A program made the translations under genes and the position numbers. A stretch of 64,000 nt of DNA from Clostridia bacterium (GTDB lineage Bacteria; Bacillota; Clostridia; TANB77; CAG-508): positions 2,869 to 66,868 of the forward strand of contig JAAWDR010000030.1 of NCBI GenBank assembly GCA_022793875.1. The letters are read 5' to 3'. The notes below the pieces were generated by a model, which worked only from the letters and a program-made list of their open reading frames with translations, had not been told where the DNA came from and ran no database searches. Position 1 is the first letter of the stretch. Every line of letters begins with the position of its first letter. This document shows positions 3,030 to 48,743 of the stretch, in pieces.

Positions 3030-4367
3030 GTGAAAAAATTTAAAAAGGGAACTAATGGGATAACATTAATCGCTTTAATAATAACAATAATAATTTTGAT
3101 ATTATTAGTAGGAATAACAATATCAAGTTTAACAGGAAGTGGATTATTTCAAAAAGCAGAAGATGCTGTAAAAGCAAGTGATAGAGCAAATGTAAAAGAG
3201 CAATTGAAATTAGCAGTAATGGCATCAATAAATGAAGATGGAAATATAGACAAAGATGAATTAAGAAAAGAATTAGAAAAGTTAAAAAATAGAGGTACAA
3301 TAGATAGTTATGAGCAAGGAGAAGAAGATTCGGAGATATTATATACTGCAACAAAAGGAAAAGATTTATATGAAATTAAAGAAAATAGAGAAGTAGAGAT
3401 AAAAGAAAATTATAATAAATTAGATGTAAAAGTAGGAGACTATGTAAATTACACACCAGATAAGCCAACATCAGAACAATTAACAGAATTAAATAGTGAA
3501 ATAAACAACTATTCAGGAAGTTCAGGGCAAAATTTAAGTCAGGCATCAGAAATGAAATGGAGAGTATTAGAAATAGATGAGAAGACTGGAAAACCAACAA
3601 AGTTAATAAGTGGAAAAGAAACAAATGAAAGCTTAAAATTATATGGAGCAAATGGATATAATAATGCAGTATATTTATTAAATAGAGCATGTGAAATATT
3701 ATACAGTAAAAATGGAATAGGCAAAGCAAGAAGTATAACGATAGAAGATTTGGAAGTACATTATAGTGAAGCAGGTAATAATGCAAGAGACACATATAAA
3801 TATAATAATAATACTGCAAATGGAAATAAATATGGAGATATAAGTAGATTTACAGGAAGCAATGCATATTATCCTAAAATATCATTAGAAGAGAACAATA
3901 TAGGAGTAAATACAATGCCATTAGATGAAAATAATAGAAATCCATTAAAAACTGATGGACTAGACATTAGTGAACAAGATAAAATATATACAGGAAATGG
4001 TCAAGCAAATACAAGTGGAATAACATTAAAGCAGACATATTATAGCTTAGGTTCATTATCAGATTTGTCAAAAGCATATGAAGAAAGTATATATTATGAG
4101 CTATTTCATAGTGCAATAAGTGTTTCACATTGGTTAGCATCTCGTAGTGTTATTACATGGGCAGGATATAGTTATTGTGATTTTCGTGCGCGTTATGTTA
4201 ATTATAGTCACCTTAGTGTTCGTAATTTATTTGGTTCTCTTTACTATAATGATGGTTATACAGATAGAATGAGACCAATAGTTTTACTAGAAAATGATAT
4301 TAAAATGGAATGTGAAGGAAAGTTTGAGGACAGTTTATATAGTATATGGAGTTTTGTGAATATATAA
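3030..4367 (+). CDS. prepilin-like N-terminus protein, paralog 1 (C-terminal WLASR...RPIV module)
   Basis: GTG start 8 nt after AAGGAG. N-terminus is MKKFKKGTNG|ITLIALIITIIILILLVGITISSLTG (G then hydrophobic helix, Ala not Glu at +5). Shares a 49-nt identical block with the 4506 gene. Confidence 0.75.
   Translation: MKKFKKGTNGITLIALIITIIILILLVGITISSLTGSGLFQKAEDAVKASDRANVKEQLKLAVMASINEDGNIDKDELRKELEKLKNRGTIDSYEQGEEDSEILYTATKGKDLYEIKENREVEIKENYNKLDVKVGDYVNYTPDKPTSEQLTELNSEINNYSGSSGQNLSQASEMKWRVLEIDEKTGKPTKLISGKETNESLKLYGANGYNNAVYLLNRACEILYSKNGIGKARSITIEDLEVHYSEAGNNARDTYKYNNNTANGNKYGDISRFTGSNAYYPKISLEENNIGVNTMPLDENNRNPLKTDGLDISEQDKIYTGNGQANTSGITLKQTYYSLGSLSDLSKAYEESIYYELFHSAISVSHWLASRSVITWAGYSYCDFRARYVNYSHLSVRNLFGSLYYNDGYTDRMRPIVLLENDIKMECEGKFEDSLYSIWSFVNI
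4128..4262 (+). other. candidate orphan DGR variable region (adenine-depleted patch)
   Basis: About 22% A over about 120 nt versus roughly 45% in the rest of the gene (hand count). Four CGT Arg codons here while flanking Arg codons are AGA. No matching TR in the window. Confidence 0.35.
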
Positions 4368-4505: not shown

Positions 4506-5075
4506 ATGGAAAAGTTCAAAAATGCTAATAGAGGTATAACATTAGTAGCATTAGTAATTACAATAATTATATTATTAATTTTAGCTGGTATATCAATATC
4601 AAGTTTAACAGGAAGTGGATTATTTCAAAAAGCAGAAGATGCAAGAACAGAATATAGAGAAGCTGAAAATAGAGAAAACTCAATACTAGGAGAATATGAA
4701 AATTACATTAATAATTTAGGAAATAATTTATCTGATGGAGATAAAATTGTACATTTTTCTATAGATGGAGTAGAGTACTCATGTGAAAAGGGAAAAAGAT
4801 GGAAAGATTTTGTTGATTATGAAGCGTATGGAGGAGATGAAGTAGTAGCTTATTTAGATACATCACATTTTGGTGGTGAACATGATGAGAATCAAAAAAT
4901 ATATTGGATAGATTGGAGTACTTTCGAAGGTGGTGCGATAAGTATGGTTGCTTATTTTGTTAAATTAGACGGGGAATATATTTATTCAAATTCAGAAATT
5001 GTTTCTGGAAAGTATATTATATCTGATGAAGTTACTTCAATTTATAATTATGGAAATTGTTATATAAAATTTTAA
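4506..5075 (+). CDS. prepilin-like N-terminus protein, paralog 2
   Basis: MEKFKNANRG|ITLVALVITIIILLILAGISISSLTGSGLFQKAEDA...ENSILGEYENYINNLGN. The first ~70 codons are near-identical to the DGR target 13848..15035. The C-terminus is unrelated. Confidence 0.75.
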   Translation: MEKFKNANRGITLVALVITIIILLILAGISISSLTGSGLFQKAEDARTEYREAENRENSILGEYENYINNLGNNLSDGDKIVHFSIDGVEYSCEKGKRWKDFVDYEAYGGDEVVAYLDTSHFGGEHDENQKIYWIDWSTFEGGAISMVAYFVKLDGEYIYSNSEIVSGKYIISDEVTSIYNYGNCYIKF

Positions 5076-5120: not shown

Positions 5121-5254
5121 TCTTTTTATATAGTAAAATTAAGATAGCCGTTCGAGCGAAGCGAGTTACGGATATCTTATACAAATGAACGATAGTGAAT
5201 TTGTAATCAAAAGAGAGATAAGTAATAGCGAATTTGTAACAATAAAAAATAAAT

Positions 5255-5312
5255 GAGGGCTGTCCCTTTTGGCTGATTTTTGTGCCAAAAAAGGGCGTCC
5301 CTATTGACACAG
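5255..5312 (+). repeat. Rep-1 element (GAGGGCTGTCCCTTTTGGCTGATTTTTGTGCCAAAAAAGGGCGTCCCTATTGACACAG)
   Basis: Homologous copies at 21993-22046 (+), 21909-21964 (-) and 58309-58376 (+). Ends 12 nt before the smc ATG. Confidence 0.8.
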
Positions 5313-5323
5313 AGGAGTAAAAA

Positions 5324-8300
5324 ATGTATTTAAAAAGATTAGAATTACAAGGATTCAAATCCTTTGCAGATAAAACAATATTAGAACTAAGACCAGGAAT
5401 AACAACAGCAATTGGACCTAATGGTTCAGGGAAAAGCAATATATCAGATGCAATAAGATGGGTACTAGGGGAGCAAAGTATGAAGTCCCTAAGAGGAGCA
5501 AAATCTTTAGATGTTATATTTGCAGGAACGCAAAACAGAAAATCTTTAGGATTTGCAGAAGCATCTTTGGTGTTTGATAATAGTGATGGGGAATTGCCAA
5601 TTGAATATACAGAGGTAACAGTCACAAGAAAGATATATAGAAGTGGAGAAACAGGATATTATATAAATAAAGTTCCATGTAGATTAAAAGATGTATTAGA
5701 ATTGTTTATGGATACAGGGATTGGTAAAGATGGATATTCAATAATTGGACAAGGTAAAATTGATGAAATTCTAAGTAATAAATCAGAAGATAGAAGACAT
5801 ATTTTTGAAGAAGCTGCAGGAATTGTTAAATATAGAACAAGAAAAGAAGAGTCAGAGAAAAAGTTAGAGCATACAAAATTAAATCTTCTTAGAATAAATG
5901 ATATCTTATCTGAAATTGAAGGGAATTTAGAACCATTGCAAATACAAGCTGATAAAGCTAAAAAGTATTTGAATTTGAGAGAAGAATTAAAAAGTATTGA
6001 GATAGGATTATTTGTATACAATATAGAAAAATACAAAAAAGATTTACAAGAGTTGGTACAATCCATAGATGTAATGACATCTCAATGTAAAGATGAAGAA
6101 GAAAAATTAGAAACAGTAAAATCATTAAAAGAAGAACTAAAGACTAATATTGATAAAATTACAGAAGAGATTGAAAGTATGTCTAATATAGGGTTTGAAA
6201 GTAAAAAACAAATCGAAATATTAAATTCAGATATTAATGTAGCAAAAACAAAGATTGCAAATAATAATGAAAACAGTGAAAGATATGCAAAAGAAATTGA
6301 AGAACAAAATGCTAGAATTACAGAACTAAATGAAGAAATTGAGCAAAAAGAGAGTAAGAAAGATAATTTAAAGAAAAACAAAGAAAAGTTTGAGAATGAG
6401 TTAAAGGAAAAACAAGAAGAATTAGATAAATTAACACAAAAACTTTCTTCAAAAGAATTGGAAATTGAAGGATATAAGCAAACAGTAGAACAAAATACTG
6501 ATAAAAAATATGAGTTACAATCAGAAATTAATACACAAAATGTAAATTATCAAAACTATGAAAAAAGAGAAGCACAAATAAAACAAGAAATTCAAGTTAC
6601 AATTTCTGAATTAGATGGAACAAGACTTAATAAAGAAGATATTTATAAACAATTTACTGAAATTCAAAATAAGAAGAATAAAATTCAAAAATCACTAGAT
6701 GATGTAGCAAAACAAAGAGAAGAAGCAAGTAAAAAAATAAAATCTTATGAGAATGATATAAATAACTTAGCTGGTGAGATGAGAATAAAGGAGTCAAGAC
6801 TTAAATTTTTAATTGAAACAGAAAAAGAAAAAGAAGGATATATAAAAAGTGTTAAATCTTTATTGCAAGATTGTGAAAATGTAAAAGATCTAGGAAAAGG
6901 TATGCATGGAGTTTTAGCAAATATTATAGATGTTCCTGATGACTTAGAAACATCAATTGAAATGTGTTTAGGAGCAAGTCTTCAAAATATAGTAACAGAA
7001 ACTGAAGAAGATGCTAAAAAATTAGTTGAGCATCTAAGAAAAAACAATTTAGGAAGAGCATCATTTTTACCAATTTCATCAGTTAAAGGTAAAAAATTAG
7101 ACAAAATTAAAGGAAATGAAAAAGGTGTAATTGGTATTGCATCAGATTTAGTAAAATACAATAAAAAATATGAACAAATTATATTAAATTTACTTGGTAG
7201 GACAGTTATTGTTGATACAATGCAAACAGCTATTAAAGTAGCAAAACAAAATGGATACATATTCAGAATAGTAACAGTTGAAGGGGATTTAATAAATCCA
7301 TCAGGAGCAATAACAGGTGGTTCTGTTGCTAAGAAAACAGTAAACATACTGGGTAGAGGTAAAGAAATTGAAAAGCTAGAAAAAGAAATCAATAACTTAA
7401 AACAAAAAATTCAAAAACTACAAAATGACAAATTAAATTATGAAGAATCAATTGAAGGAATTTTAGAGTTATCAGCAAACTTAGAAAAAGAAATGCAAGA
7501 AATAGATATTACATATGCTACTGAAAAACAAAAGGTTATTTCAATTGATGAAAATATTGAAAAACTAGAAAAACGTTTAGCTAGATTAAAAGAAGAACAA
7601 CAAAGCCTTGAAAAACAAAAAGAAGAAGCAGTATCTTTAAAAGGAAACATACAAGTAGAAATAAATAAAATTGTTGAGCAAAATCAAGAATTATCAAAAG
7701 TTATAACAGAATTTGCTGAACTTAATAAAGATGACCAAAAATATATAGATGATTTAAATTTTGATATAATAAATTTAAAAATTTCTGTATCATCATTTGA
7801 TGAAAGTGAAGCTTCAATTGAAGAAATTAAAGAAAGAATTAATCAAGAATTAGAAAATACAAAAATAAGTATTGAAAATAAAAAGAACCAAATAGAGCAG
7901 ATTGCAATAGAGAATGAAAAGCTAGAAAAATCAATAAATGAAACATTACAAAAAATTGAAGAAATAAAAGCAGAAGTTCAAAACAGTAGTAATAAAATAG
8001 AAGAATTGAAACAACAAAGAACTGAAAAAAGTGAGACACTTTCAAAACAAGAAGATGAAATTACAGACAAATTCAAAGTAATTGAAGATTTAAAAGGTCA
8101 ACTTGTAAAATTAGATGTAAAGAAAACAAAGATAGAAGAAGATATTAATGAAATTTATAATAAGATGTGGGAAGAGTATGAACTTACACCAAATAATGTA
8201 GGAGAATACCAAAGACCAGAGAATGTTCAATTAACACAAAGAAGAGTAAATAGTCTAAGAAATGAAATTAAAGAACTTGGAAGTGTTAATGTAGATTCTA

Positions 8301-8872
8301 TAGAAGAATACAAAAACTTAAAAGATAGATATGACTTTATGAGTGAACAAAGACTTGATTTAGAAAATACAATGAGCAAACTTAGAAGTGTAATTTCTGA
8401 TATGACACAAATTATGAGAGAACAATTTAAGGAAAAATTTAAAGTAATAAATAAAAATTTTGGAGAAGTATTTGCTGAATTATTTGGTGGAGGAAAAGCA
8501 GAACTTATATTAGAAGATGAAAATAATATACTAGAATGTGGAATAGAAATTACAGTACAACCGCCAGGAAAAAAATTACAAAGCATGACATTGTTGTCAG
8601 GAGGAGAAAAGGCATTTACAGCAATAGCATTATTATTTGCAATTTTAAAAATAAACCCAGCACCTTTCTGCGTATTGGATGAGATTGAAGCTGCTCTTGA
8701 TGATGTTAATGTATTTAGATATGCTGAATATTTGAAAAAATTTGCTGAACATACACAATTTTTAGTAATTACTCATAGAAAAGGAACAATGGAAGTTGCT
8801 GATACTGTTTATGGTGTTACTATGGAGGAAAGCGGTATTTCTAAATTGTTGTCGATGAAAATGTCCCATTAG
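5324..8872 (+). CDS. smc: chromosome segregation protein SMC
   Basis: 1182 aa. N-terminal Walker A GPNGSGKSN, long coiled coils, hinge, and C-terminal LSGGEKA signature plus Walker B FCVLDEIEAALD. Confidence 0.97.
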   Translation: MYLKRLELQGFKSFADKTILELRPGITTAIGPNGSGKSNISDAIRWVLGEQSMKSLRGAKSLDVIFAGTQNRKSLGFAEASLVFDNSDGELPIEYTEVTVTRKIYRSGETGYYINKVPCRLKDVLELFMDTGIGKDGYSIIGQGKIDEILSNKSEDRRHIFEEAAGIVKYRTRKEESEKKLEHTKLNLLRINDILSEIEGNLEPLQIQADKAKKYLNLREELKSIEIGLFVYNIEKYKKDLQELVQSIDVMTSQCKDEEEKLETVKSLKEELKTNIDKITEEIESMSNIGFESKKQIEILNSDINVAKTKIANNNENSERYAKEIEEQNARITELNEEIEQKESKKDNLKKNKEKFENELKEKQEELDKLTQKLSSKELEIEGYKQTVEQNTDKKYELQSEINTQNVNYQNYEKREAQIKQEIQVTISELDGTRLNKEDIYKQFTEIQNKKNKIQKSLDDVAKQREEASKKIKSYENDINNLAGEMRIKESRLKFLIETEKEKEGYIKSVKSLLQDCENVKDLGKGMHGVLANIIDVPDDLETSIEMCLGASLQNIVTETEEDAKKLVEHLRKNNLGRASFLPISSVKGKKLDKIKGNEKGVIGIASDLVKYNKKYEQIILNLLGRTVIVDTMQTAIKVAKQNGYIFRIVTVEGDLINPSGAITGGSVAKKTVNILGRGKEIEKLEKEINNLKQKIQKLQNDKLNYEESIEGILELSANLEKEMQEIDITYATEKQKVISIDENIEKLEKRLARLKEEQQSLEKQKEEAVSLKGNIQVEINKIVEQNQELSKVITEFAELNKDDQKYIDDLNFDIINLKISVSSFDESEASIEEIKERINQELENTKISIENKKNQIEQIAIENEKLEKSINETLQKIEEIKAEVQNSSNKIEELKQQRTEKSETLSKQEDEITDKFKVIEDLKGQLVKLDVKKTKIEEDINEIYNKMWEEYELTPNNVGEYQRPENVQLTQRRVNSLRNEIKELGSVNVDSIEEYKNLKDRYDFMSEQRLDLENTMSKLRSVISDMTQIMREQFKEKFKVINKNFGEVFAELFGGGKAELILEDENNILECGIEITVQPPGKKLQSMTLLSGGEKAFTAIALLFAILKINPAPFCVLDEIEAALDDVNVFRYAEYLKKFAEHTQFLVITHRKGTMEVADTVYGVTMEESGISKLLSMKMSH

Positions 8873-8916
8873 GGACGTTTCTTTTTGGGACATTTTGTCC
8901 CATTGGGGACACATCT
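8858..8916 (+). repeat. Rep-2 element (AAAATGTCCCATTAGGGACGTTTCTTTTTGGGACATTTTGTCCCATTGGGGACACATCT)
   Basis: Three near-identical copies (8858, 42468, 48513). This copy contains the last 4 codons and the TAG stop of smc. Confidence 0.85.
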
Positions 8917-8942
8917 TATATTGAGAATAGAAATTTTAGGCG

Positions 8943-9010: not shown

Positions 9011-9259
9011 TTACATGATTGTAAATCCAGAAAGGCGAGCTTGGATTTTGCAGTCTTTTAATTTCATTTCGGTTTCAACAGGATAAACAGGAAATTCCGA
9101 AAGATAAAAGTTAACATTTTTCTTTCTTTTTCTTTTACCTTTTATCGGATGAGCCTCTTTTAACCAGTTTACAAACCGGATATACTTTTCGTAGCTATCC
9201 GTTGTTGCAGTTAAAGTTGTCTGGGGTCCTTTTAAAGTAATTTTATACATAATTTTCAT
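9011..9259 (-). CDS. small hypothetical protein, tandem paralog A
   Basis: 82 aa, MKIMYKITLKGPQTTLTATTDSYEKYIRFVNWLKE. RBS AGGAGGCAT. Minus-strand promoter TTGTAA-17-TATAAT at 9285-9313. GC visibly above the surroundings. Confidence 0.55.
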   Translation of the reverse strand: MKIMYKITLKGPQTTLTATTDSYEKYIRFVNWLKEAHPIKGKRKRKKNVNFYLSEFPVYPVETEMKLKDCKIQARLSGFTIM

Positions 9260-9385
9260 GCCTCCTATATATTGATATAGAACAATTATAACACAATTTT
9301 ATAGTTTTTACAATAGTTGACATAAAAAACGGCAGAATTTAGTTACTTTCCACCGTTTTTTTGTGCATTTCAATTATTATATTAC

Positions 9386-9589
9386 TTAAGCTGTGAGTCC
9401 GATACGGCGAGCTTTGGTTCTGCAAGCTATCAGCCGCTTTTCAGATGCGATAGGATATGCATCAATATCAACATCTCCATTTGTCGGATTATACTCATGT
9501 AACCATTTTATGAACCGGACATACATCTCGTAATTATCCGTTTCAGCGGTTAGTGTTGTTTCAGGTCCTTGCAAAGTAATTTTGTACAT
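9386..9589 (-). CDS. small hypothetical protein, tandem paralog B
   Basis: 67 aa, MYKITLQGPETTLTAETDNYEMYVRFIKWLHE. Same RBS, promoter (TTGCAT-17-TATAAT, 9622-9650) and terminator architecture as paralog A. Confidence 0.55.
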   Translation of the reverse strand: MYKITLQGPETTLTAETDNYEMYVRFIKWLHEYNPTNGDVDIDAYPIASEKRLIACRTKARRIGLTA

Positions 9590-9653
9590 AATTTTTATGC
9601 CTCCTATATATTGATAAAATAATTATAACATAAATTTACAACTAATGCAATAG

Positions 9654-10229
9654 TTAACATAAGAAAAATTTTGAAAGTCCAATAAAAATTAGTAAAATTC
9701 CAGATATTAGTGACCATATATTTTCAGGTAATTTATAAAGTTTATTAATATTTTTACCCAAAAGACTACCAATGCTTAAAAAGAACAACTGAAAAATACT
9801 AACTAATATAGGAAATAATCTTAAATTTATATTACTAATACTTCCTCCTATTCCAATACATAAACTATCTAAAGAAAGAGCTATTGCTAAAAATATTGAT
9901 TCTCTTGAATCTATAATTTTAGACTTATCTAAATCTGAAGATATAGGGTTATTGAATATATTTGAAAAATCTTCTTTTAATGCTTGCAAACATATATAAA
10001 CTCCCATAAAAATTAGAATAGAGCTACCAATTAATTTGGTTAAAAAATGAGGAAAAATTGATTCTATAATGTTTCCTAGAAATATTGATATATAAGTTAC
10101 TGTTATAGAAATGATAAATAATAGTATTTTTCCTATTAAAGAAATTTTTGTATTTTTAATTCCATATGTAATTCCGATTCCTAGTGAATCGATGCTACTT
10201 GAAATTGCTAAAATAAAAGAACTTAACAT
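9654..10229 (-). CDS. YtaF/MntP-family (DUF204) membrane protein
   Basis: 191 aa, about 6 TM. Duplicated SxDSLGIG / SLDSLCIGIG half-motifs are typical of the MntP/YtaF family. Confidence 0.6.
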   Translation of the reverse strand: MLSSFILAISSSIDSLGIGITYGIKNTKISLIGKILLFIISITVTYISIFLGNIIESIFPHFLTKLIGSSILIFMGVYICLQALKEDFSNIFNNPISSDLDKSKIIDSRESIFLAIALSLDSLCIGIGGSISNINLRLFPILVSIFQLFFLSIGSLLGKNINKLYKLPENIWSLISGILLIFIGLSKFFLC

Positions 10230-13847: not shown

Positions 13848-15035
13848 ATGAAAAAGCAAAACAAAGGTATAACACTTGTAGCATTAGTAATTACAATTAT
13901 CATATTATTAATTTTAGCGGGAATCTCAATAAGTGCATTAACAGGAAGTGGATTATTCCAAAAGGCAGGAGATGCCAAAAATAGTTATGAAGAAGCAGAA
14001 AGAAGAGAAAATTCAATATTAGGAGAATATGAAAACTATATTGATAATTTAGGAAATGGTGGAAGTACAGGAAGTTTACCATCAAATGCAGAAACAACAC
14101 CATATTTACCAGACTCAAGTAGTAAAATAATAGAAAATTCAAATTTAGAAACAGGATTAGTAGTAGCAGATAAAAATAATAATGAATGGGTATGGATAGT
14201 AGTGCCAAAATCAGTAACAGCAAGTGCAACAACAGATTTAGAAATAGAAAATGCATTACAAACATATGCAACAGATTATAGAAGTTCTTGGACAGATGAA
14301 TGGTATGAAGGATGTGGATTAACAGAAGCACAATATAATGAAAATAAAAGTAAAATGTTGCAAAGTATAAAAGCAAATGGAGGATTTTGGATAAGTAGAT
14401 ATGAAGCAGGAATAGAAGGAAGTGTGCAAAATCCATCTTTAGCAAGAACAGAGCCAGGAGAACTAACAACATCGTCACCAAAGGCAGTAAGTAAGCCAGA
14501 CCATATACCATATAATTGGGTAACATGTAGTCAAGCACAAAATCTAGCAAGTCAAATGAGTCCAGAGACAACAAAAACAAGTAGTTTATTATTTGGAATA
14601 CAATGGGATTTAGTGTGTAAGTACCTAGAGGGAAAAGACGGATTAACAACAGCAGATATAAATGAAGATAGTTCAAGTTGGGGAAATTATAGTAATAATT
14701 CATTAAATATAACAAGTGCAAAAGCTATGGGAGCAGAATTCAATACATCAACATATCAACTAGGAGAGTGGCAAAATGTTACTGAGAAACCAGCAAATAA
14801 ACTAAGTCTATTAACAACAGGAGCATCAATAGGAACTAAGAAGATGAATATATATAATTTTGCAAGTAATGAAGCAGAATGTACATTAGAAAAGGCGACC
14901 AGCAGCAGCGATCCATGTAGCATTAGGGGAGGCATTTACAGCCTTACAGGTTCCGACTATCCAGCTTCTGCTCGCAACGACTATGATCCTTCTAGCGGTA
15001 ACGACGTCATTGGTTTGCGCGTTTCACTTTATTAA
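13848..15035 (+). CDS. DGR variable (target) protein: prepilin-like N-terminus plus FGE/C-type-lectin-fold domain
   Basis: N-terminus MKKQNKG|ITLVALVITIIILLILAGISISALTG. SUMF1/FGE-like motifs GFWISRYEA, NWVTCSQAQNLA, LLFGIQWDLVCKYL, NIYNFASNEAECT, SIRGG, VIGLRVS. The last 47 codons match the TR. Confidence 0.9.
   Translation: MKKQNKGITLVALVITIIILLILAGISISALTGSGLFQKAGDAKNSYEEAERRENSILGEYENYIDNLGNGGSTGSLPSNAETTPYLPDSSSKIIENSNLETGLVVADKNNNEWVWIVVPKSVTASATTDLEIENALQTYATDYRSSWTDEWYEGCGLTEAQYNENKSKMLQSIKANGGFWISRYEAGIEGSVQNPSLARTEPGELTTSSPKAVSKPDHIPYNWVTCSQAQNLASQMSPETTKTSSLLFGIQWDLVCKYLEGKDGLTTADINEDSSSWGNYSNNSLNITSAKAMGAEFNTSTYQLGEWQNVTEKPANKLSLLTTGASIGTKKMNIYNFASNEAECTLEKATSSSDPCSIRGGIYSLTGSDYPASARNDYDPSSGNDVIGLRVSLY
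14892..15034 (+). other. DGR variable region (VR)
   Basis: Gap-free alignment to 16536-16678 (offset 1644). Mismatches fall almost exclusively at TR adenines. Confidence 0.9.
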
Positions 15036-15138
15036 AGTAGGACTGAACTCTAAAGCCGTGACTATAACATTATAAAAAAATTAGTTTTAAAAGTACAGAT
15101 TATGAAAAGAGTAATCTAACGAATTTAATACGTTAGAG

Positions 15139-15206
15139 GTGAAAATTTTTGTTTATCGCTAAATTTGACGAAGTCAAAAGTTTAGCGGTAAAAGAAAAAT
15201 TTTCAC
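15139..15206 (+). other. long imperfect nested hairpin downstream of the VR
   Basis: GTGAAAATTTTTGTTTATCGCTAAA pairs with TTTAGCGGTAAAAGAAAAATTTTCAC (12+3+7 bp). It encloses the inner hairpin TTTGAC-GAA-GTCAAA. Confidence 0.5.
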
Positions 15207-15217
15207 TCAAGCGGTGG

Positions 15218-15242
15218 CGCCACCCAAGCGGTGGCGTTTTTT
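15218..15242 (+). terminator. GC-rich intrinsic terminator between the target gene and the accessory/RT genes
   Basis: CGCCACC-CAAGC-GGTGGCG followed by TTTTTT. Preceded by a direct repeat of CAAGCGGTGGCG that could form an alternative pairing. Confidence 0.6.
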
Positions 15243-15294
15243 GTGCGTTTAGCACAAAGAACGTCACCAAAATAAAAAAAGGAGGTACGCCAAA

Positions 15295-15549
15295 ATGGCA
15301 TTTAGTAAAATGATAGAATTATTACAAAAGAAAGATGAAGGAAAAATAATACTAGTAAATGCAGGAGCATTTTATATAGCAAGAGGAAAAGATGCAGAAC
15401 TAAATACACAAAGAATATATCTAAGAATAATGAAAAATAACAAATGGATAGATGAAAGAAAATTCAGAATAGTAATGGAGCAAATATATGAAATAGGAAA
15501 AATACTAGGAGGACTATATAAACACTATGCCAAAAACAATCCGAAATGA
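15295..15549 (+). CDS. DGR accessory protein candidate (MutS-domain-I-like N-terminus, Avd-like C-terminus)
   Basis: 84 aa. GGAGG lies 9 nt upstream. KIILVNAGAFYIARGKDAE resembles the MutS N-terminal GDFYE..G.DA motif. C-terminal EQIYEIGKILGGLYKHY resembles an Avd helix. Overlaps the RT start by 23 nt. Confidence 0.55.
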   Translation: MAFSKMIELLQKKDEGKIILVNAGAFYIARGKDAELNTQRIYLRIMKNNKWIDERKFRIVMEQIYEIGKILGGLYKHYAKNNPK

Positions 15550-16462
15550 ATTTGAAAAGCATTTAACATATGAAAAATTAATGGAAGCACACAAAAAATC
15601 AAAAAAAGGAAAAGGATACAGAAAAGAAATAATAGAATTTAACTTAAAACAAGAAGAATATATAATATGGTTATTAGAACAATTAAAAACACAGAAATAC
15701 AAACATGGGGGATATACAACATTTTATGTAACAGAACCAAAATTAAGAAAAATAGAAAAATCAAGATACATAGATAGAATAGTACATAGATGGGTAGTAG
15801 ATAACTTTTTAGAACCAGCATTTGTACCACAATTTGTAAATACATCATTTGCATGTCTAAAAAATAAAGGAATGCACAAAGCATGTTTATATGTTCAAAA
15901 CACAATGAAGCACTGTAAAAACATATGGAATGAGCATTATATACTAAAAATGGATGTATCAAAATATTTTGATACTATAGATAAAAAAATATTATTAAAA
16001 ATTATAGAAAAGAAAATAAAAGATAAAAAGCTATTATGGTTATTAAATGAAATAGATCAATTTATAAAACACAAATTACATATAAAATATTATTGTAGAT
16101 ATTTAGATGACAGTATAGTAATAGTAAAAACAAAGCAAGAAGCAAAAGATGCATTAATAAAAATACAAAAATATTTAAAAGAAAATTTAGAGCTAGAATT
16201 AAATAAAAAAACACAAATATTTAAAAATAAACAAGGAGTAAACTTTTGTGGATATAAAATAAATGAATATAGACTAAAAATAAGAGACAAAGGAAAAAGA
16301 AAATTAAAGAAAAAAGTAAAAAAATTAAAAGAACAAATAAAATTAGGGAAAATTACAAGCAAAGAAGCGCATAAATATTTAGCAGGCCATATGGGATATA
16401 TAAAATATGCAAATACAAGAAACTTAGAAAATAAATTATTTTATTTAGAAAGTGAACAATAA
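15527..16462 (+). CDS. DGR-type reverse transcriptase
   Basis: RT motifs FYVTEPKLRKIEKSRYIDRIVHRWV (1), SFACLKNKGMHKA (2), ILKMDVSKYFDTID (3), YCRYLDDSIVIV (5), NFCGYKI (7). The cognate TR/VR pair is adjacent. Confidence 0.9.
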   Translation: MPKTIRNEFEKHLTYEKLMEAHKKSKKGKGYRKEIIEFNLKQEEYIIWLLEQLKTQKYKHGGYTTFYVTEPKLRKIEKSRYIDRIVHRWVVDNFLEPAFVPQFVNTSFACLKNKGMHKACLYVQNTMKHCKNIWNEHYILKMDVSKYFDTIDKKILLKIIEKKIKDKKLLWLLNEIDQFIKHKLHIKYYCRYLDDSIVIVKTKQEAKDALIKIQKYLKENLELELNKKTQIFKNKQGVNFCGYKINEYRLKIRDKGKRKLKKKVKKLKEQIKLGKITSKEAHKYLAGHMGYIKYANTRNLENKLFYLESEQ

Positions 16463-16535
16463 AATATATTTAATATACCAAAAACTAAAAAAGCGAAATT
16501 CAAAATAAAGATTTCAAAATATTAGGGATAAATCG

Positions 16536-16678
16536 AAAACGACCAACAGCAACAATCCATGTAGCAATAGGGGAGGCAATTACAACAATACAGGTTCCAA
16601 CAATCCAGCTTCTAACCGCAACAACAATGATCCTTCTAACAGTAACGACAACATTGGTTTACGCGTTTCACTCTAATA
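16536..16678 (+). other. DGR template repeat (TR)
   Basis: AAY-rich. In the VR frame it reads TTNSNNPCSNRGGNYNNTGSNNPASNRNNNDPSNSNDNIGLRVSL*. Lies 74 nt downstream of the RT stop. Confidence 0.9.
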
Positions 16679-16820
16679 TTATTTCAGATTATATATTTTA
16701 AGGAATATATACAGTAAAAATATTAGTATTAAAGAGATTTATTCCTTCCTAAATAGGTAAAAATGAATCAGTAGTGTTTGTATTTGTAAATTTGTTAATC
16801 GAATATATGAATAGTACGAA

Positions 16821-16853
16821 TATACAGAATTATAGCAATTATAATTCTGTATA
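16821..16853 (+). terminator. 13-bp perfect hairpin downstream of the TR
   Basis: TATACAGAATTAT-AGCAATT-ATAATTCTGTATA. Probable 3' boundary of the DGR transcript. Confidence 0.5.
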
Positions 16854-16944
16854 TAAAATTATAAAAAGTATTTTCAAAGATAACTTGGCAGTTTATTTTA
16901 AAGCAATGATTTGTAAAAAATTAATTAATATATAGGAGAGAAAA

Positions 16945-17190
16945 TTGAATTTAGTTTATATACAAGGAAAAATAATAAGTGACATAGAATTTAAATTTAT
17001 AATAAAAAGCAAAAACAAATCAATATCAATATTTAAATTAGAACTTACAAATAATTCAATAGTAACAATAAAGGCATATAATGAATTAGCAGATTATTGC
17101 TATAGTAAGTTAAATAAAGATGATATAATATTAATAGAAGGAAAATTAAACTCAAAATTAGAAATAATTCTTCAGATAATTGAACTGTAA
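16945..17190 (+). CDS. hypothetical small OB-fold/SSB-like protein
   Basis: TTG start after GGAGAG. The pattern VYIQGKII...IEGKL loosely resembles SSB/PriB OB folds. Weak assignment. Confidence 0.35.
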   Translation: MNLVYIQGKIISDIEFKFIIKSKNKSISIFKLELTNNSIVTIKAYNELADYCYSKLNKDDIILIEGKLNSKLEIILQIIEL

Positions 17191-17375: not shown

Positions 17376-17660
17376 ATGAATAAATACGAAAGTATTATCA
17401 TTGTTAATCCAAATGTTGATGAAGCAGGTATAAAAGCTTTAGAAGAAAAATTTACAGGATTAATAAATGAAAATGGAAAAGTAGAATCTGTTGAGAACAT
17501 GGGTAAAAAAAGATTAGCTTATGAAATCAAAAAATTCAAAGAAGGTACATATATGTTATTTAACTTTGAAGCAAAACCAGATTCAGTAGCAGAACTTGAA
17601 AGAGTTTACAGAATTACAGATGATATAATAAAATTCATCGTTGTAAGAAAAGAAGACTAA
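17376..17660 (+). CDS. rpsF: 30S ribosomal protein S6
   Basis: MNKYESIIIVNPNVDE...KRLAYEIKKFKEGTYMLFNF. Conserved rpsF-ssb-rpsR synteny. Confidence 0.95.
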   Translation: MNKYESIIIVNPNVDEAGIKALEEKFTGLINENGKVESVENMGKKRLAYEIKKFKEGTYMLFNFEAKPDSVAELERVYRITDDIIKFIVVRKED

Positions 17661-33236: not shown

Positions 33237-33579
33237 TTTGTGAGTATAAATATATGAATTCATAGGAAGAGGATTAGAAATAATCTTCTTTTTTTTATAT
33301 AATAGGAAAGTGATACTTTCCTATTATATAAAACTCAATTGTACAGAAATTTTCTAACGAAAATTTCGCACACGAACAAATTAACTCTGAATATCTTTAA
33401 ATAAGAGTTATAATTCACAGTTAAAAAATTATTATATATTAAGTATTTTCAAATAAAATAAAAAGAGAGTTATGAATTGTAATAATAAAAAAATGTAGAA
33501 ACTTAAATATCAAATATTGAAAAATATAAAAATTATATATATAATATATAAAAAGTCAAATTTGAAGGAGAAAGTGAAA

Positions 33580-34107
33580 ATGAAAGAAAATAAAGGAATA
33601 ACAATGGTAGCATTAGTTATAATAATTATATTATTATTAATATTAGTGGGAGTATCAACAGGCACAGGAGGAAATTTAATAAAACAAACTAAATTAGAAA
33701 ATTTGAAAACAAATATGTTATTAATAAAAGTAAAAGCAAAAGAATATGTAGAAAATGCAAATTTTAATTTAGGAACAACATTTGAAAAGTTAACAGATGA
33801 AACTGAAAAGAATAATAGAATACAAAAAGCAAGAGAGGAATTAAAAGGAGAAGATGTTACAAGTACTATATCTTCATATAATATTAATATAAATGATAGT
33901 TCTGAAAATGTATATTATTATAAATTAGATACACAGACTTTATTAAATATAGGATTATCAAATTTAAAATCAGATGAAAAAGAAGGTTGGTATATAATCA
34001 GATATGATATAGTGAATGCTGAAGTTGAAGTATATAATTCAAAGGGATTTGAAAGTAATAATACTAAATATTATTCATTAAGCGATTTACAAAATATTGA
34101 AATATAA
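33580..34107 (+). CDS. prepilin-like N-terminus protein, paralog 4
   Basis: Internal ATG after the GAAGGAG RBS gives MKENKG|ITMVALVIIIILLLILVGVSTG. The ORF-track start at 33517 adds an implausible Ile/Lys-rich leader. Confidence 0.7.
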   Translation: MKENKGITMVALVIIIILLLILVGVSTGTGGNLIKQTKLENLKTNMLLIKVKAKEYVENANFNLGTTFEKLTDETEKNNRIQKAREELKGEDVTSTISSYNININDSSENVYYYKLDTQTLLNIGLSNLKSDEKEGWYIIRYDIVNAEVEVYNSKGFESNNTKYYSLSDLQNIEI

Positions 34108-42352: not shown

Positions 42353-42467
42353 TATTTATATGCCCCTTTTTAATTATCATATTTTTCTATAAAAATTTAT
42401 AATCATACATATATATATTATCCTACAAAATGGCGAAAAAAACAAGTATTTTTGCAAAAAAAGTTGC

Positions 42468-42526
42468 AAAATGTCCCATTGGGGACGTTTCTGTTTGGGA
42501 CAAAATGTCCCATTAGGGACACATTT
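42468..42526 (+). repeat. Rep-2 element, copy 2
   Basis: AAAATGTCCCATTGGGGACGTTTCTGTTTGGGACAAAATGTCCCATTAGGGACACATTT, in a divergent intergenic region. Confidence 0.85.
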
Positions 42527-42626
42527 ATTAAAATATTAAATAAACTACAAATTATAATAGTTTTTTTGAATAAATTTTCCAATAAAAACATATAATATTT
42601 AAAATTAGTTGAATGGAAGTGATATT

Positions 42627-43682: not shown

Positions 43683-45524
43683 TTATTCTACAGTAACAGA
43701 TTTAGCTAAATTTCTAGGTTTATCAACATCTAATCCCTTTTCTTTTGAGATATAATAAGCCAGTAATTGAAGAGGAATAATTGATAATATTGGAGATACA
43801 AATTGATTAGTATCTGGAATATTAATAACAACATTAAACATGTCATTATCTAGCTTTTGATTTGTTATAACTAAAGTTTTTGCACCACGAGTAATAACTT
43901 CTTGAATATTACTAATAGTTTTCTTTATTAAATCTTTATCTGTTAAGATACTAATAACAGTAATTCCATTTTCAATTAAAGCAATAGGACCATGTTTTAA
44001 TTCGCCAGCTGCATAGCTTTCAGAGTGAATATAAGAAATTTCTTTTAGTTTTAAAGAACCTTCTTTACTTACAGTTTCATCAATTCCTCGACCTAAGAAG
44101 AATATATCTTTTTCTTGATAAATTTGTTTAGCAAAATTTTTTATTTGATTATTGCATGTTAATGTCTCTTCAATTTTTTTAGGCAAATCTAAAATATCAC
44201 TTTTTAGTTTATTTAGAATATCTTTATCTTTTTTCTCCAAAACTTCAGCAAAATATATAGCTAAAATATTAATTAATATAACTTGAGAAGTATAAGCTTT
44301 GGTTGAGGCTACAGCTATTTCTGGTCCAGCATGTGTATAAATAGAGTAATCTGCTTCTCTAGTTATAGAGCTTCCAATAACATTAGTAATTGCAATTGTT
44401 TTAGAGCCTTGTTCTTTTGAAAGTTTTAATGCTGCAATAGTGTCAGCTGTTTCTCCAGATTGAGAGATAAAAATGCATAAAGTTTTTTCATCTAATATAG
44501 GATTTCTATATCTGAATTCTGATGCAATATCTACTTCAACAGGAATTCTACAAAGTTTTTCAATTGTATTTTTTCCACTTAATCCAGCATGCATTGCTGT
44601 ACCACATGCAACTATATAAATTTTGTTTAAATTTTGTAAATATTCTTTTGTTAAGTTAAGTTCTTCAAATTCACATTTGGAATTTAAATTAATTCTAGAA
44701 CCTATAGTTTCTCTAATTGCTTTAGGTTGTTCATAAATTTCCTTAAGCATGAAATCATCATATCCATCTTTTTCAGCACTTGAAGAATTCCATTCAATAT
44801 TTTGAACTTTTTTATTAATTTTATCTAAATTTTTATCAAAAAACTCAATATTATTTCTTGTTAATAATGCAAATTCAAAATCATTTAGAAGATAGAAATT
44901 TCTAGTATAAGAAAGTATAGCTGGTATATCAGAAGATAAATATTTTTCATCTTCGCATGTACCAATAACTAAAGGACTATCTTTTCTTACAACAATCATG
45001 TTATCAGTGTAAAGAGATGAAATTACTTCTATTGCAAAACTTCCTTTTAAATCCATACAAGCATTTTTTACAGCTCTTAGATATTTTTGTTTGTCATTTT
45101 TTTCGTCTTTTGTAAAATAGTAGTGTATCAAATTTGGTATAACTTCTGTATCTGTTTGAGAATAAAAGGTATAACCATTTTCAGTTAAAAATTTTCTTAA
45201 TTCATTGTAATTTTCAATAATTCCATTATGTACTACACTAAAAGTTTTTGAATTATCTTGATGCGGATGTGAATTTTCTTTTGAAGGTACTCCATGAGTT
45301 GCCCATCTTGTATGTGCAATACCTATTGTTCCTTCTAATTCATTAATTCCATCTAAATTTGATAAATTTTTTACTCTTCCTTTATCTTTCATTAAAGATA
45401 AGCCTTTTTTTTCTATTGTTGAAATTCCAGCTGAGTCATATCCTCTGTATTCCAATCTATTTAAACCTGCCAAAAGTATAGGGCAAGCTTTTTTTGTTCC
45501 TATGTAACCTACAATTCCACACAT
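43683..45524 (-). CDS. glmS: glutamine--fructose-6-phosphate aminotransferase
   Basis: MCGIVGYIG N-terminal nucleophile, two SIS domains, C-terminal KPRNLAKSVTVE. Confidence 0.97.
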   Translation of the reverse strand: MCGIVGYIGTKKACPILLAGLNRLEYRGYDSAGISTIEKKGLSLMKDKGRVKNLSNLDGINELEGTIGIAHTRWATHGVPSKENSHPHQDNSKTFSVVHNGIIENYNELRKFLTENGYTFYSQTDTEVIPNLIHYYFTKDEKNDKQKYLRAVKNACMDLKGSFAIEVISSLYTDNMIVVRKDSPLVIGTCEDEKYLSSDIPAILSYTRNFYLLNDFEFALLTRNNIEFFDKNLDKINKKVQNIEWNSSSAEKDGYDDFMLKEIYEQPKAIRETIGSRINLNSKCEFEELNLTKEYLQNLNKIYIVACGTAMHAGLSGKNTIEKLCRIPVEVDIASEFRYRNPILDEKTLCIFISQSGETADTIAALKLSKEQGSKTIAITNVIGSSITREADYSIYTHAGPEIAVASTKAYTSQVILINILAIYFAEVLEKKDKDILNKLKSDILDLPKKIEETLTCNNQIKNFAKQIYQEKDIFFLGRGIDETVSKEGSLKLKEISYIHSESYAAGELKHGPIALIENGITVISILTDKDLIKKTISNIQEVITRGAKTLVITNQKLDNDMFNVVINIPDTNQFVSPILSIIPLQLLAYYISKEKGLDVDKPRNLAKSVTVE

Positions 45525-45544: not shown

Positions 45545-45712
45545 AATAAATATTGAGAATTGAAAGTTTGCAATACTTAATTTATTAATTTTTGTTCTAA
45601 TATTTCTATTAGTTTTTAATTAATAATAATGACTTTAAGTGTAGCCACTAGAGAATCCGCCGAATATTTCGATATCTCTAGACCTCGTCAACCAATATGG
45701 TCCTGGCGCTTA
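45545..45712 (-). ncRNA. glmS ribozyme: glmS ribozyme/riboswitch
   Basis: Minus strand reads A|GCGCCAGGAC...GACGAGG..AUAUCGAAAUAUUCGGCGGAU..GGCU, matching the conserved glmS core directly upstream of glmS. The 3' boundary is approximate. Confidence 0.8.
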
Positions 45713-45934
45713 TTATTTTTTTGACTCCTTTCTTAAATAATAATATAAATGCAACTTTCATAATATAATTGTTTTCATAAATAAAATTCTTATTTCAACA
45801 ATTATATTTTATTATATTACTACATATATAAATTTTGTGCAAGTCTAATTTACACTTACACAAAGATGTTGATTTTGTTAGCTAAAATAGTGTATAATGT
45901 AAGTATAGATTATATTTAAGAAAGGAAATAAAAG

Positions 45935-46727: not shown

Positions 46728-48527
46728 ATGTTTAATATAGAAGAAGAACTAAAAAAGTTACCAGGAAAACCTGGAGTATATGTAATGAGAGACAAAGATG
46801 ACAATATCATATATGTAGGAAAAGCAATATCATTAAAAAATAGAGTAAGGTCATACTTTAGAAAAACAAACAAGACAGAAAGAATAAAAAAGATGGTTAG
46901 CTTAATAGATCACTTTGAATATATTGTAGTTGATAATGAAGCAGAAGCATTAATATTAGAATGTAATTTAATAAAGAAAAACAGACCTAAATTTAATGTT
47001 TTATTAAAAGATGACAAAACATATCCATATATTAAAATAGATGTAAAATCAGAATACCCAAATGTATTTATAACAAGGAAATTAGTAAATGATGGAGCAA
47101 AATACTTTGGACCATATGCAAATCCAGGGGCAGCAAAAGAAATGTTAGATTTTATAAAACAAAAGTACAAAATACGTCAATGTAAAAATTTTAAATCAAC
47201 AACAAGAGCATGCCTAAATTATCATATAAAAAGATGTTTAGCACCATGTGTTGGATATGTAACACCAGAAGAATACAGAAAACAAATAGATGAAATAATA
47301 GACTTATTAGAAGGAAAAACAGACAAAATAATAAAAGAATTAGAAATAGAAATGCAAAAAGCATCTGAAAGCTTAGATTTTGAAAAAGCAGCAGAATTAA
47401 GGGATAGGAGATTAGCAATAGAAAGAGTATCAGAGAAACAAAAAGTATCTAACATATCAGAAAATAATATAGATGTAATAGGATTATATAAATCAGAAAT
47501 AGAAGTATGTATTGAAATCTTTTTTGTACGTGGAAGCAAAATGATAGGAAGAGAGCACTACTTTTTTAAAGAACTAAAAGATATGGAAGATAGCGAAATT
47601 CTAACAGGATTTATAAAACAATACTATTTAGACAATCCAAATATTCCAAGCAAAATAATGTTAAGAGAAGAATTACCTGAAAAAGACATAATAGAGCAAT
47701 GGTTATCTACAATTTTAGGAAAAAAAGTGGAATTGAAGAGTCCAAAAAAAGGTGAAAAGTTAAGATTTGTTGAAATGGCAGAAAATAATGCAAAAGTAAC
47801 ATTAGAAAATAAAGAAAAAGATAAATCAGAAATATTAATGGAGCTAAAAGAAGTTTTAAAAATGGACAAATTACCACGAAAAATAGAGACTTATGATATA
47901 TCAAATATATCTGGACAATTTATGGTAGCAGCAATGTGTGTAATGGAAGATGGAATTATAAAAAAGAATTTGTCAAGAAGATTTAAAATAAAAACAGTAC
48001 TAACACAAGATGACCCAAAATGTATGGAAGAAGTGGTAACAAGAAGACTTGCACATTCATTAGAAAGTGCAACAGAACAAGAAAAAAAAGGATTTGGAAA
48101 ATTGCCTGATGTAATATTTGCAGATGGAGGGATAACACAAATAAGAGCAATAAAGACAGCAATATCTAAATACGAAGGACAAAAATTATATATAAGGGTA
48201 TTTGGAATGGTAAAAAATGATAAGCATCAAACAAGAGCATTAATAGATGAAAATAGACAAGAGATACCAATATCAGAAAACTTAATGAACTTGATAACTA
48301 AGTTTCAAGATACAGTACATGATACAGCAATTAGCTATCACAGAAAGTTAAGAGAACAATCAATTACACATTCTGAATTAGATGATATTAAGGGAATTGG
48401 TGAGGCAAAGAAGAAGGCTTTATTGAAGCACTTTGGTAGTGTAGAGAAAATTAAGCATGCTACAAAAGAAGAGTTGATGCAAGTAAAGGGCATAACAGAA
48501 GAATTGGCAGAGAAAATGTCCCAATAG
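46728..48527 (+). CDS. uvrC: excinuclease ABC subunit C
   Basis: GIY-YIG (PGVYVMRD..IIYVGKA), UVR domain, RNase-H-like domain, C-terminal (HhH)2. Confidence 0.97.
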   Translation: MFNIEEELKKLPGKPGVYVMRDKDDNIIYVGKAISLKNRVRSYFRKTNKTERIKKMVSLIDHFEYIVVDNEAEALILECNLIKKNRPKFNVLLKDDKTYPYIKIDVKSEYPNVFITRKLVNDGAKYFGPYANPGAAKEMLDFIKQKYKIRQCKNFKSTTRACLNYHIKRCLAPCVGYVTPEEYRKQIDEIIDLLEGKTDKIIKELEIEMQKASESLDFEKAAELRDRRLAIERVSEKQKVSNISENNIDVIGLYKSEIEVCIEIFFVRGSKMIGREHYFFKELKDMEDSEILTGFIKQYYLDNPNIPSKIMLREELPEKDIIEQWLSTILGKKVELKSPKKGEKLRFVEMAENNAKVTLENKEKDKSEILMELKEVLKMDKLPRKIETYDISNISGQFMVAAMCVMEDGIIKKNLSRRFKIKTVLTQDDPKCMEEVVTRRLAHSLESATEQEKKGFGKLPDVIFADGGITQIRAIKTAISKYEGQKLYIRVFGMVKNDKHQTRALIDENRQEIPISENLMNLITKFQDTVHDTAISYHRKLREQSITHSELDDIKGIGEAKKKALLKHFGSVEKIKHATKEELMQVKGITEELAEKMSQ

Positions 48528-48571
48528 GGACGTTTCTTTTTGGGACATTTTGTCCCATTGGGGACACATCT
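48513..48571 (+). repeat. Rep-2 element, copy 3
   Basis: Contains the last 4 codons (KMSQ) and the TAG stop of uvrC. Confidence 0.85.
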
Positions 48572-48743
48572 TTAAAATTGTAATATTAGTTGTGCTGCAG
48601 GAATGCCTCTGAGACCTAATACAGAGTATTCTGAATACAAGTGTGTAAAAGTGGAAGAAAACAAAGATGCAAAAAAGTGATAGCACAAAAAATTAGTAAC
48701 AAAAATCCCTATCTGTACAGGATAGGGATTTTGCTATATAGAA

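Follow-up and report, generated by a model that had tools for sequence, protein, structure and literature searches.

Two described kinds of diversity-generating retroelement (DGR) come closest to the element analysed here. In BPP-1 of Bordetella phage (mtd-avd-TR-brt), a gene for a ligand-binding protein is diversified at its 3′ end by adenine-specific mutagenesis from a template repeat (TR), Avd is a partner of the reverse transcriptase (RT) bRT, and a structured RNA (Sp/RT-10) adjoins the 3′ end of the TR. Architecture D consists of DGRs, e.g. that of Legionella, in which avd is accompanied by a gene for a MutS-domain-I-like protein (MSL) (Wu et al. 2018, PMC5758913). A third relevant system is an RNA: RT-14 (RF02921) is a family without an assigned role, described in a study that placed RT-10 in the spacer between the BPP-1 TR and RT and speculated that further RT motifs belong to DGRs (Weinberg et al. 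2017, PMC5737381). We analysed a 64,000-nucleotide stretch of DNA from a Clostridia bacterium (assembly GCA_022793875.1, contig JAAWDR010000030.1, positions 2,869 to 66,868), hereafter the window, in which a complete DGR had been proposed from the sequence alone. We conclude that the locus is probably a chromosomal DGR of the MSL + Avd type that was recently active, is now damaged and non-autonomous, and is most likely frozen. Its identification as a DGR holds, given an adenine-specific repeat pair, a variable repeat (VR) at the 3′ end of the target gene, an RT resembling bRT and an accessory open reading frame (ORF) that matches Avd models. It is not complete, as the RT has lost the DGR signature motif in a 28-aa deletion and the small accessory ORF is a remnant of fused MSL and Avd. 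The core features, in window coordinates, are the following.

13848-15035, plus strand: target gene, an ORF of 395 aa whose N-terminus is hydrophobic and pilin-like and whose C-terminal end is the VR.
14892-15034, plus strand: VR, with 24 mismatches to the TR and a mutagenised tract at about 14896-15028.
15012-15034, plus strand: 3′ block of the VR, GGTTTGCGCGTTTCACTTTATTA, resembling an initiation of mutagenic homing (IMH) site and differing from its TR copy at 15029 and 15032, both fixed in five alleles.
15295-15549, plus strand: fusion remnant of 84 aa, with residues 1 to about 34 of a MutS_I-like (MSL) protein joined to the last approximately 50 aa of bAvd.
15527-16462, plus strand: DGR-type RT of 311 aa with an in-frame deletion of 84 nt (28 aa); YLDD is kept.
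16043-16054, plus strand: deletion junction in the RT gene, the sole remaining copy of the 12-nt direct repeat TTAAATGAAATA, located by prefix and suffix matches to the intact allele.
16536-16678, plus strand: TR, AAY-rich, starting 73 nt past the RT stop.

The locus shares with Architecture D a MutS-domain-I-like accessory beside avd, an IGxxxSQ-containing RT in its intact relatives, an adenine-specific TR/VR pair, and the placement of all parts on one strand. It differs from that class in that the window's MSL and Avd are fused by deletion and its RT lacks the signature motif, and also in that a gene for a minimal single-stranded DNA-binding protein (mini-SSB) and RT-14 follow the TR in its clade, neither of which is among the accessory classes of the survey (PMC5758913). 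Each of the BPP-1 features named above has a counterpart here, with bRT (8ub7) the nearest solved RT and RT-14 taking the place of Sp/RT-10 at the TR 3′ end; RT-14 is a full-length match to its Rfam family beside the RT gene. Unlike BPP-1, the window element is chromosomal and not phage-borne, its TR comes after the RT, its target is pilin-like and not a tail fibre, and its clade has extra MSL and SSB-like genes. The housekeeping genes in the neighbourhood (PFOR, SMC, MntP, Ca-ATPase, rpsF-ssb-rpsR, RNase HII) argue that the element is chromosomal rather than prophage-borne.

The adenine bias of the repeat pair carries the identification. In an ungapped alignment at an offset of 1644, TR and VR differ at 24 positions, close to the approximately 23 that had been counted by hand. 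Of these mismatches 22 fall on TR adenines (13 A>G, 7 A>T and 2 A>C, TR to VR), and the remaining two are C>T changes at exactly the positions that the original prediction had named as exceptions (16616/14972 and 16673/15029). VR adenines carry no mismatch to the TR. Given 55 adenines among the 143 nt of the TR, the hypergeometric probability of at least 22 of 24 mismatches on adenines is 4.6e-9, and the claim that the pair differs almost only at TR adenines is thus borne out by the computed alignment and tabulation that had been suggested for it; the TR translation and the common 3′ block were likewise described correctly. The homology ends abruptly on both flanks, the VR forms the last 143 nt of the target coding sequence, ending one codon before the stop, and a repeat search of the 64-kb window found no other TR/VR-like copies (family D4 is the sole such pair). 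The 3′ block common to both repeats is GC-richer, with its fixed differences at 16673 and 16676 on the TR side. These two (C>T and A>T, respectively) and the AA>GG change at 16538 and 16539 are the four mismatches common to all five VR alleles described below, and they appear to mark the boundaries of the tract (IMH versus IMH*) and not mutagenesis. By analogy with BPP-1, the 3′ block of the VR would function as an IMH.

Comparison of alleles adds evidence of past activity. Among RT-deleted contigs and close relatives (individual contigs and loci carry L numbers) there are five VR alleles: VR1 in the window and five other contigs, with a sixth (L008) one single-nucleotide polymorphism (SNP) away, VR2 in L002, L003, L005 and L006, VR3 in L094-L096, VR4 in L102 and L105, and VR5 in L103 and L104. 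Each differs from the TR by 21-27 changes at A sites and 2-4 at other sites. If the five are taken together, 41 of the 48 adenines in the tract are variable, as against 7 of 85 non-A positions, and the per-allele change rate is 57% for adenines of AAY codons, 17.5% for other adenines and 2.4% for non-A positions. A polymorphism in the TR itself gives the direction: position 16586 is C in the window and T in L012 and L093, and its VR counterpart is C in VR1 and VR2 and T in VR3-5, direct evidence that information flowed from TR to VR. These alleles show TR-to-VR transfer in the lineage of this element, as past and not as present activity. All lineages with these alleles have the MSL-Avd fusion, and their cassettes (14601-16900) share 99.7% identity or more when the VR is left aside. 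Since all five alleles stand on the fusion background, retrohoming continued after the MSL-Avd deletion, and either the remnant was sufficient or helpers acted in trans.

The RT is related to those of DGRs and has lost their hallmark. Its best solved relative is bRT of Bordetella phage (E=2.9e-29), compared with 2e-15 for group II and 5e-11 for retron-type RTs in the PDB. Its NCBIfam scores, given with their cutoffs, are 130/300 for group II, 73/235 for retron and 71/200 for Drt3a, PADLOC run on the window gave generic RT-domain matches only, and an Rfam search of the window found no group II intron or retron RNA. We therefore rejected a retron, group II, defence-associated RT (DRT) or abortive infection (Abi) identity, with scores far under the curated cutoffs and no cognate RNA. 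By these comparisons, DGR RTs are nearer relatives of the window RT than are those of group II introns, retrons, Abi or DRT systems. However, it is 311 aa long versus 336-340 aa in database relatives, and protein alignment to these reveals a clean gap of 28 aa, corresponding to LNEILYAQKREKGIEIGNYTSQMFANIY; in the alignment to bRT, residues of about 161-196 are skipped, so that, unlike BPP-1, the window RT has no equivalents of this region, including I181 and Q187. IGNYTSQ lies within the lost segment and conforms to the published DGR RT signature [I/V/L]GxxxSQ, whose first residue (I181 in bRT) contacts the incoming dNTP (PMC7826257). IGNYTSQ is present in 80 of 81 RTs of the family; the sole exception, the otherwise intact RT of L011 (4001-5020), has IVNYTSQ, a Gly-to-Val change.

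The origin of the gap can be traced at the nucleotide level. Apart from the missing 84 nt, the window RT gene is 100% identical in DNA to an intact allele of 339 aa (P0002/L012). The matching prefix (528 nt) and suffix (420 nt) together exceed the 936-nt gene by 12 nt, which means that one copy of a 12-nt repeat is left. To judge from this junction, the 84-nt loss is a slippage deletion between two copies of TTAAATGAAATA. An assembly artefact was considered and rejected as its source, as more than 20 independent SPAdes and Logan contigs have the deletion and the intact allele was also assembled. A tblastn search found no second RT in the window.

The small ORF between target and RT has been damaged by another deletion. 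In L011 the layout is target, a 150-aa MutS_I protein (MSL), a 124-aa bAvd and RT, and we mapped the fusion by aligning the 84-aa ORF to these two intact proteins. The junction lies at about 15391-15402, at the microhomology AGATGC(A/G)G, with approximately 562 nt lost relative to L011. Pfam matches cover positions 61-106 of 107 of the bAvd profile (29 bits, cutoff 40) and 10-50 of 113 of MutS_I, and the NCBIfam model DivGenRetAVD matches at positions 61-104 only (30.5 versus a cutoff of 80). The window thus has neither an intact Avd, of which the last approximately 50 aa remain in the fusion, nor a separate MutS-like gene, of which residues 1 to about 34 survive in the same ORF. Separately, a cassette haplotype termed B has five SNPs relative to the window within 43 nt of the fused ORF (15438-15480), three of them synonymous and the others forming a 2-nt change that gives V59S; the cluster resembles a short tract of gene conversion with a paralogous avd as donor.

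These observations suggest the following course of events. In intact relatives, the RT, partnered by Avd and MSL, would copy the RNA of the TR and the adjoining RT-14 structure into cDNA and would miscopy template adenines in the process. The cDNA, possibly coated by the mini-SSB of the cassette, would then replace the last approximately 130 nt of the gene for the pilin-like surface protein. In the window lineage, a deletion of about 560 nt joined the first approximately 34 aa of MSL to the last approximately 50 aa of Avd, and slippage over 84 nt between the 12-nt repeats later removed motif 4 of the RT (IGNYTSQ), part of the dNTP pocket. TR, VR, RT-14 and mini-SSB are still intact. If the element is frozen, its VR would be a record of the last retrohoming event.

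The population in which the deleted RT occurs points to continuing decay. Contigs with exactly this deleted RT come from many samples, and the deletion is found on at least two haplotypes (A/A′ and B), while the intact RT is on haplotype B (L012, L098, L099). Either the deletion was recurrent or it was moved by recombination; recurrence is plausible because the 12-nt repeats lie 84 nt apart. Approximately 15 RT-deleted contigs cover the VR and have only VR1, VR2 or VR3, and in a collection of 15 billion proteins the 90% cluster of the target shows no more than two alleles of the VR at the protein level. Even a target gene that differs in its N-terminal part still carries VR1. In L093, a frameshift near window position 16324 shortens the deleted RT (442-1242) further, to 266 aa. 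In L102, the Ca-ATPase gene and the target (with VR4) are arranged as in the window and are then followed, after the equivalent of 15108, by pheS-pheT (6189-6845); its lack of the accessory-RT-TR cassette reflects deletion, rearrangement or mis-assembly. A further lesion is the in-frame loss of 9 nt from the target gene of L105 (equivalent to 14840-14848).

Tracing a second OB-fold gene in a metagenome-assembled genome that holds this cassette led to a second DGR locus, beside gyrA (L106-L111; GCA_965113515.1, contig CBCOVE010000018.1, and others). This locus is in the same species, and in the same assembly as a contig that holds the RT-deleted cassette (L001). It keeps a target (of Big_2 type), RT-14 and the mini-SSB, and two unrelated ORFs (171 and 72 aa, with no Pfam match) replace MSL, Avd, RT and TR. 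Four samples have an identical VR at this locus, which differs from the TR of L011 at 46 non-A positions and, to judge from these, is long dead. As it lacks RT, Avd, MSL and TR, a simple model of supply in trans lost support for this genome. We also considered whether L011, which has intact proteins, is from the same genome as the window cassette, and rejected this, as the shared flanks are only about 85-89% identical. The small number of VR alleles, the continuing decay, the RT-less second locus and the absence of any other RT from the window together favour an element that is now frozen.

Several points weigh against this conclusion. The loss of RT function is a prediction from the missing motif. 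Retrohoming appears to have gone on after Avd and MSL were lost, so for the fusion lesion ‘damaged’ does not equal ‘dead’. Furthermore, VR1 and VR2 both occur on RT-deleted haplotypes, which are 4 SNPs apart outside the VR, and their divergence could represent activity after the RT deletion. VR1 and VR2 have 15 identical substitutions in common and 13 finely interleaved differences, 11 of them at TR adenines, whereas independent pairs of VR alleles have 2-7 substitutions in common and 28-34 differing sites. Full retrohoming would re-randomise every adenine, so the relation between VR1 and VR2 looks like one of partial rewriting. This could have come about by patchy incorporation of cDNA with mismatch repair (cf. 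PMC12875486), separate freezing after recurrent deletions, or selection on variable codons.

The alternative that best survives is that the element is non-autonomous yet still diversifying, with RT, Avd and MSL supplied in trans by another cellular DGR or an infecting phage. It would account for the differences between VR1 and VR2 at A sites on RT-deleted haplotypes, and for a VR that was rewritten at least four times on a cassette bearing the fusion. Genomes of the clade often have two or three cassettes, the L011 cassette has a TR 5′ part, MSL N-terminus and Avd C-terminus nearly identical to those of the window, and the five SNPs within 43 nt of the fused ORF look like conversion from a paralogous avd. 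However, the sole second locus that was found in a cassette-bearing assembly has no RT, Avd, MSL or TR to offer, and the RT search names one HFJ60 protein only. The RT-deleted contigs show three VR alleles only, and, with the deletion on at least two haplotypes and maybe recurrent, each lineage could have frozen separately. We regard supply in trans as unlikely.

Less probable still, though it is what had originally been proposed, is a complete and autonomously active DGR whose RT of 311 aa and accessory protein of 84 aa are variants that still function. Both ORFs are open and in frame, the catalytic YLDD is kept, the fusion ORF stays 84 aa long in all lineages, and retrohoming did take place after the fusion. 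Against this, the whole of motif 4 and its flanks are deleted in a family where the motif is invariant (80 of 81), the fusion retains only profile positions 61-106 of a four-helix-bundle protein, and an intact RT allele coexists in the population while the deleted allele decays further, as the L093 frameshift shows. Finally, a mere duplication that diverged by ordinary mutation or selection is a formal possibility, since positive selection would likewise concentrate changes in variable codons, but we give it practically no credence in view of the 22 of 24 mismatches on TR adenines and none on VR adenines, five alleles with the same asymmetry and flanks at least 99.7% identical, and the context of RT, Avd and RT-14.

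Returning to a recently active and now probably frozen element, its significance lies partly in what can be seen at each stage of decay. It belongs to an already known kind of DGR, and the added value is the decay series, the RT-14 RNA beside the TR and the candidate SSB-like accessory. The population offers a series from intact RT through motif-4 deletion and an added frameshift to loss of the cassette, with VR alleles at each stage, and thus a natural experiment on how a DGR is switched off and with what consequences for the diversified gene. Programs that find DGRs automatically would probably call the locus complete, as it has an RT domain, an Avd match and an A-biased TR/VR pair. The motif loss and the fusion are visible only by alignment to relatives, so censuses that equate detection with activity may over-count. 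If rewriting did continue when some 60% of Avd and some 75% of MSL had been lost, then intact Avd and MSL would be dispensable or routinely supplied in trans between cassettes. If the 84-nt RT deletion is recurrent, it could be a one-way switch at the level of the population that locks a useful VR. If RT-14 and the mini-SSB are functional, hitherto unassigned DGR parts, the latter would handle cDNA, which fits the recent lagging-strand/ExoI model, and the former would handle priming. That all three ideas hold together (rewriting after the Avd and MSL loss, the RT deletion as a switch, and mini-SSB and RT-14 as functional parts) is a tentative and rather unlikely proposition.

The element had been predicted to end with the TR at 16678, which is too short: RT-14 and the SSB-like ORF, both intact, were overlooked. 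The features beyond the RT are as follows.

16671-16817, plus strand: RT-14 RNA motif (Rfam RF02921), 97.3 bits versus a gathering score of 48.1, model positions 1-144.
16820-16854, plus strand: perfect 15-bp hairpin (I2), 100% complementary, directly after RT-14.
16945-17190, plus strand: minimal SSB-type OB-fold protein of 81 aa, conserved downstream of the TR throughout the clade.

RT-14 overlaps the final 8 nt of the TR. All 14 relatives tested have the motif in the same place, so that with the window it abuts the TR 3′ end of a DGR in 15 of 15 loci, a result that supports the speculation of Weinberg and colleagues about RT motifs. By its position, RT-14 is the analogue of the BPP-1 spacer (Sp/RT-10). 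The perfect hairpin that follows may be the end of the DGR RNA.

By tblastn, 74 of the 80 family loci have the mini-SSB ORF, which keeps a constant distance from the RT, and three of the six misses have insufficient flanking sequence. Its AlphaFold2 (AF2) model has a pLDDT of 92.6, and the top 50 PDB matches in a fold search are all SSBs (TM 0.7-0.88, probability 1.00), from which the ORF is predicted to encode an SSB-type OB fold. The Pfam SSB match is weak and under the cutoff for the window protein and above it for the L011 copy (5480-5731). In the clade the protein is about 70-83 aa long and, as read from the sequence, has no acidic C-terminal tail. We found no description of an SSB-like DGR accessory in the literature searched, which is not proof of novelty; the conserved mini-SSB is a candidate accessory protein of a large DGR clade of gut Clostridia. 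In the window its gene immediately precedes the housekeeping rpsF-ssb-rpsR operon (17376-18472).

Among species-representative genomes, a scan yielded 80 loci of this family, at most three in any one genome. The hosts are uncultured Clostridia of the gut, Clostridium sp. CAG:567 and CAG:354 among them. Almost all have MSL (approximately 135-150 aa), Avd (approximately 120 aa), RT (approximately 336 aa) and a small ORF 330-470 nt past the RT stop, and where upstream sequence is available the VR is present too, mismatched per 100 nt at 13-28 A sites and 0-1 other sites. The canonical cassette is thus a pilin-like target, MSL, Avd, RT, TR, RT-14 RNA and mini-SSB. The order target-accessory-RT-TR had been thought less common; it is the norm in this clade, which corresponds to Architecture D, and the MSL + Avd type of DGR is abundant in uncultured, AT-rich gut Clostridia. 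A scan of JGI metagenomes with the TR/VR pattern, its A positions wild-carded, gave no match.

The N-terminus of the target gives a weak match to Pfam N_methyl (18.3 bits, cutoff 21.2), and the conserved Glu5 of pilin N-termini reads as Ala in its sequence. JGI labels the protein a PulG-like pseudopilin, and a profile search gave weak matches to pilins at the N-terminus and to SUMF2 at the C-terminus (E=0.028). FGE-sulfatase is a C-type-lectin-like DGR scaffold. Among 46 homologs of the target, 24 match N_methyl (E<0.01) and 19 match FGE-sulfatase, a domain that was not detected in the window's own target protein. The AF2 model has a pLDDT of 70, with low confidence over the VR part, and a Foldseek search with it gave no match at E<0.6, so a C-type-lectin fold found no direct confirmation for the target. 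Three further window genes (3030-4367, 4506-5075 and 33517-34107) have the pilin-like N-terminal approximately 65 aa of the target, with 66-85% identity to it in N-terminal DNA and unrelated C-termini. The likeness is limited to the N-terminus, and none of the three contains a VR copy.

The spacer that follows the target gene (15115-15268) is rich in hairpins and has one terminator-like feature:

15216-15238, plus strand: terminator-like GC hairpin and T-run, 3′ of the target gene.

The remaining structures in it are a hairpin at 15115-15137, a long imperfect palindrome at 15139-15206, and a stem at 15230-15268 that overlaps the terminator-like hairpin. Any of them might be a counterpart of the cruciform close to the IMH in BPP-1. 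L105 has a 21-nt deletion in this spacer, equivalent to 15206-15226.

Elsewhere in the window, intergenic repeats with GTCCC/GGGAC palindromes form two families of three copies each (8822-8917, 42432-42527 and 48477-48572; 5241-5310, 21977-22046 and 58306-58375). They are multi-hairpin structures at gene ends, resembling repetitive extragenic palindromes (REP) or terminators, and one copy is also present in L102. A 140-nt direct repeat (9138-9277 and 9477-9616, 80% identical, 339-nt spacing) lies upstream of an mntP-like gene (9654-10229, minus strand) and matches no Rfam family at the gathering score. A glmS ribozyme/riboswitch (RF00234, 77 bits) is found at 45573-45721 on the minus strand, upstream of an ORF of 613 aa (43683-45524).

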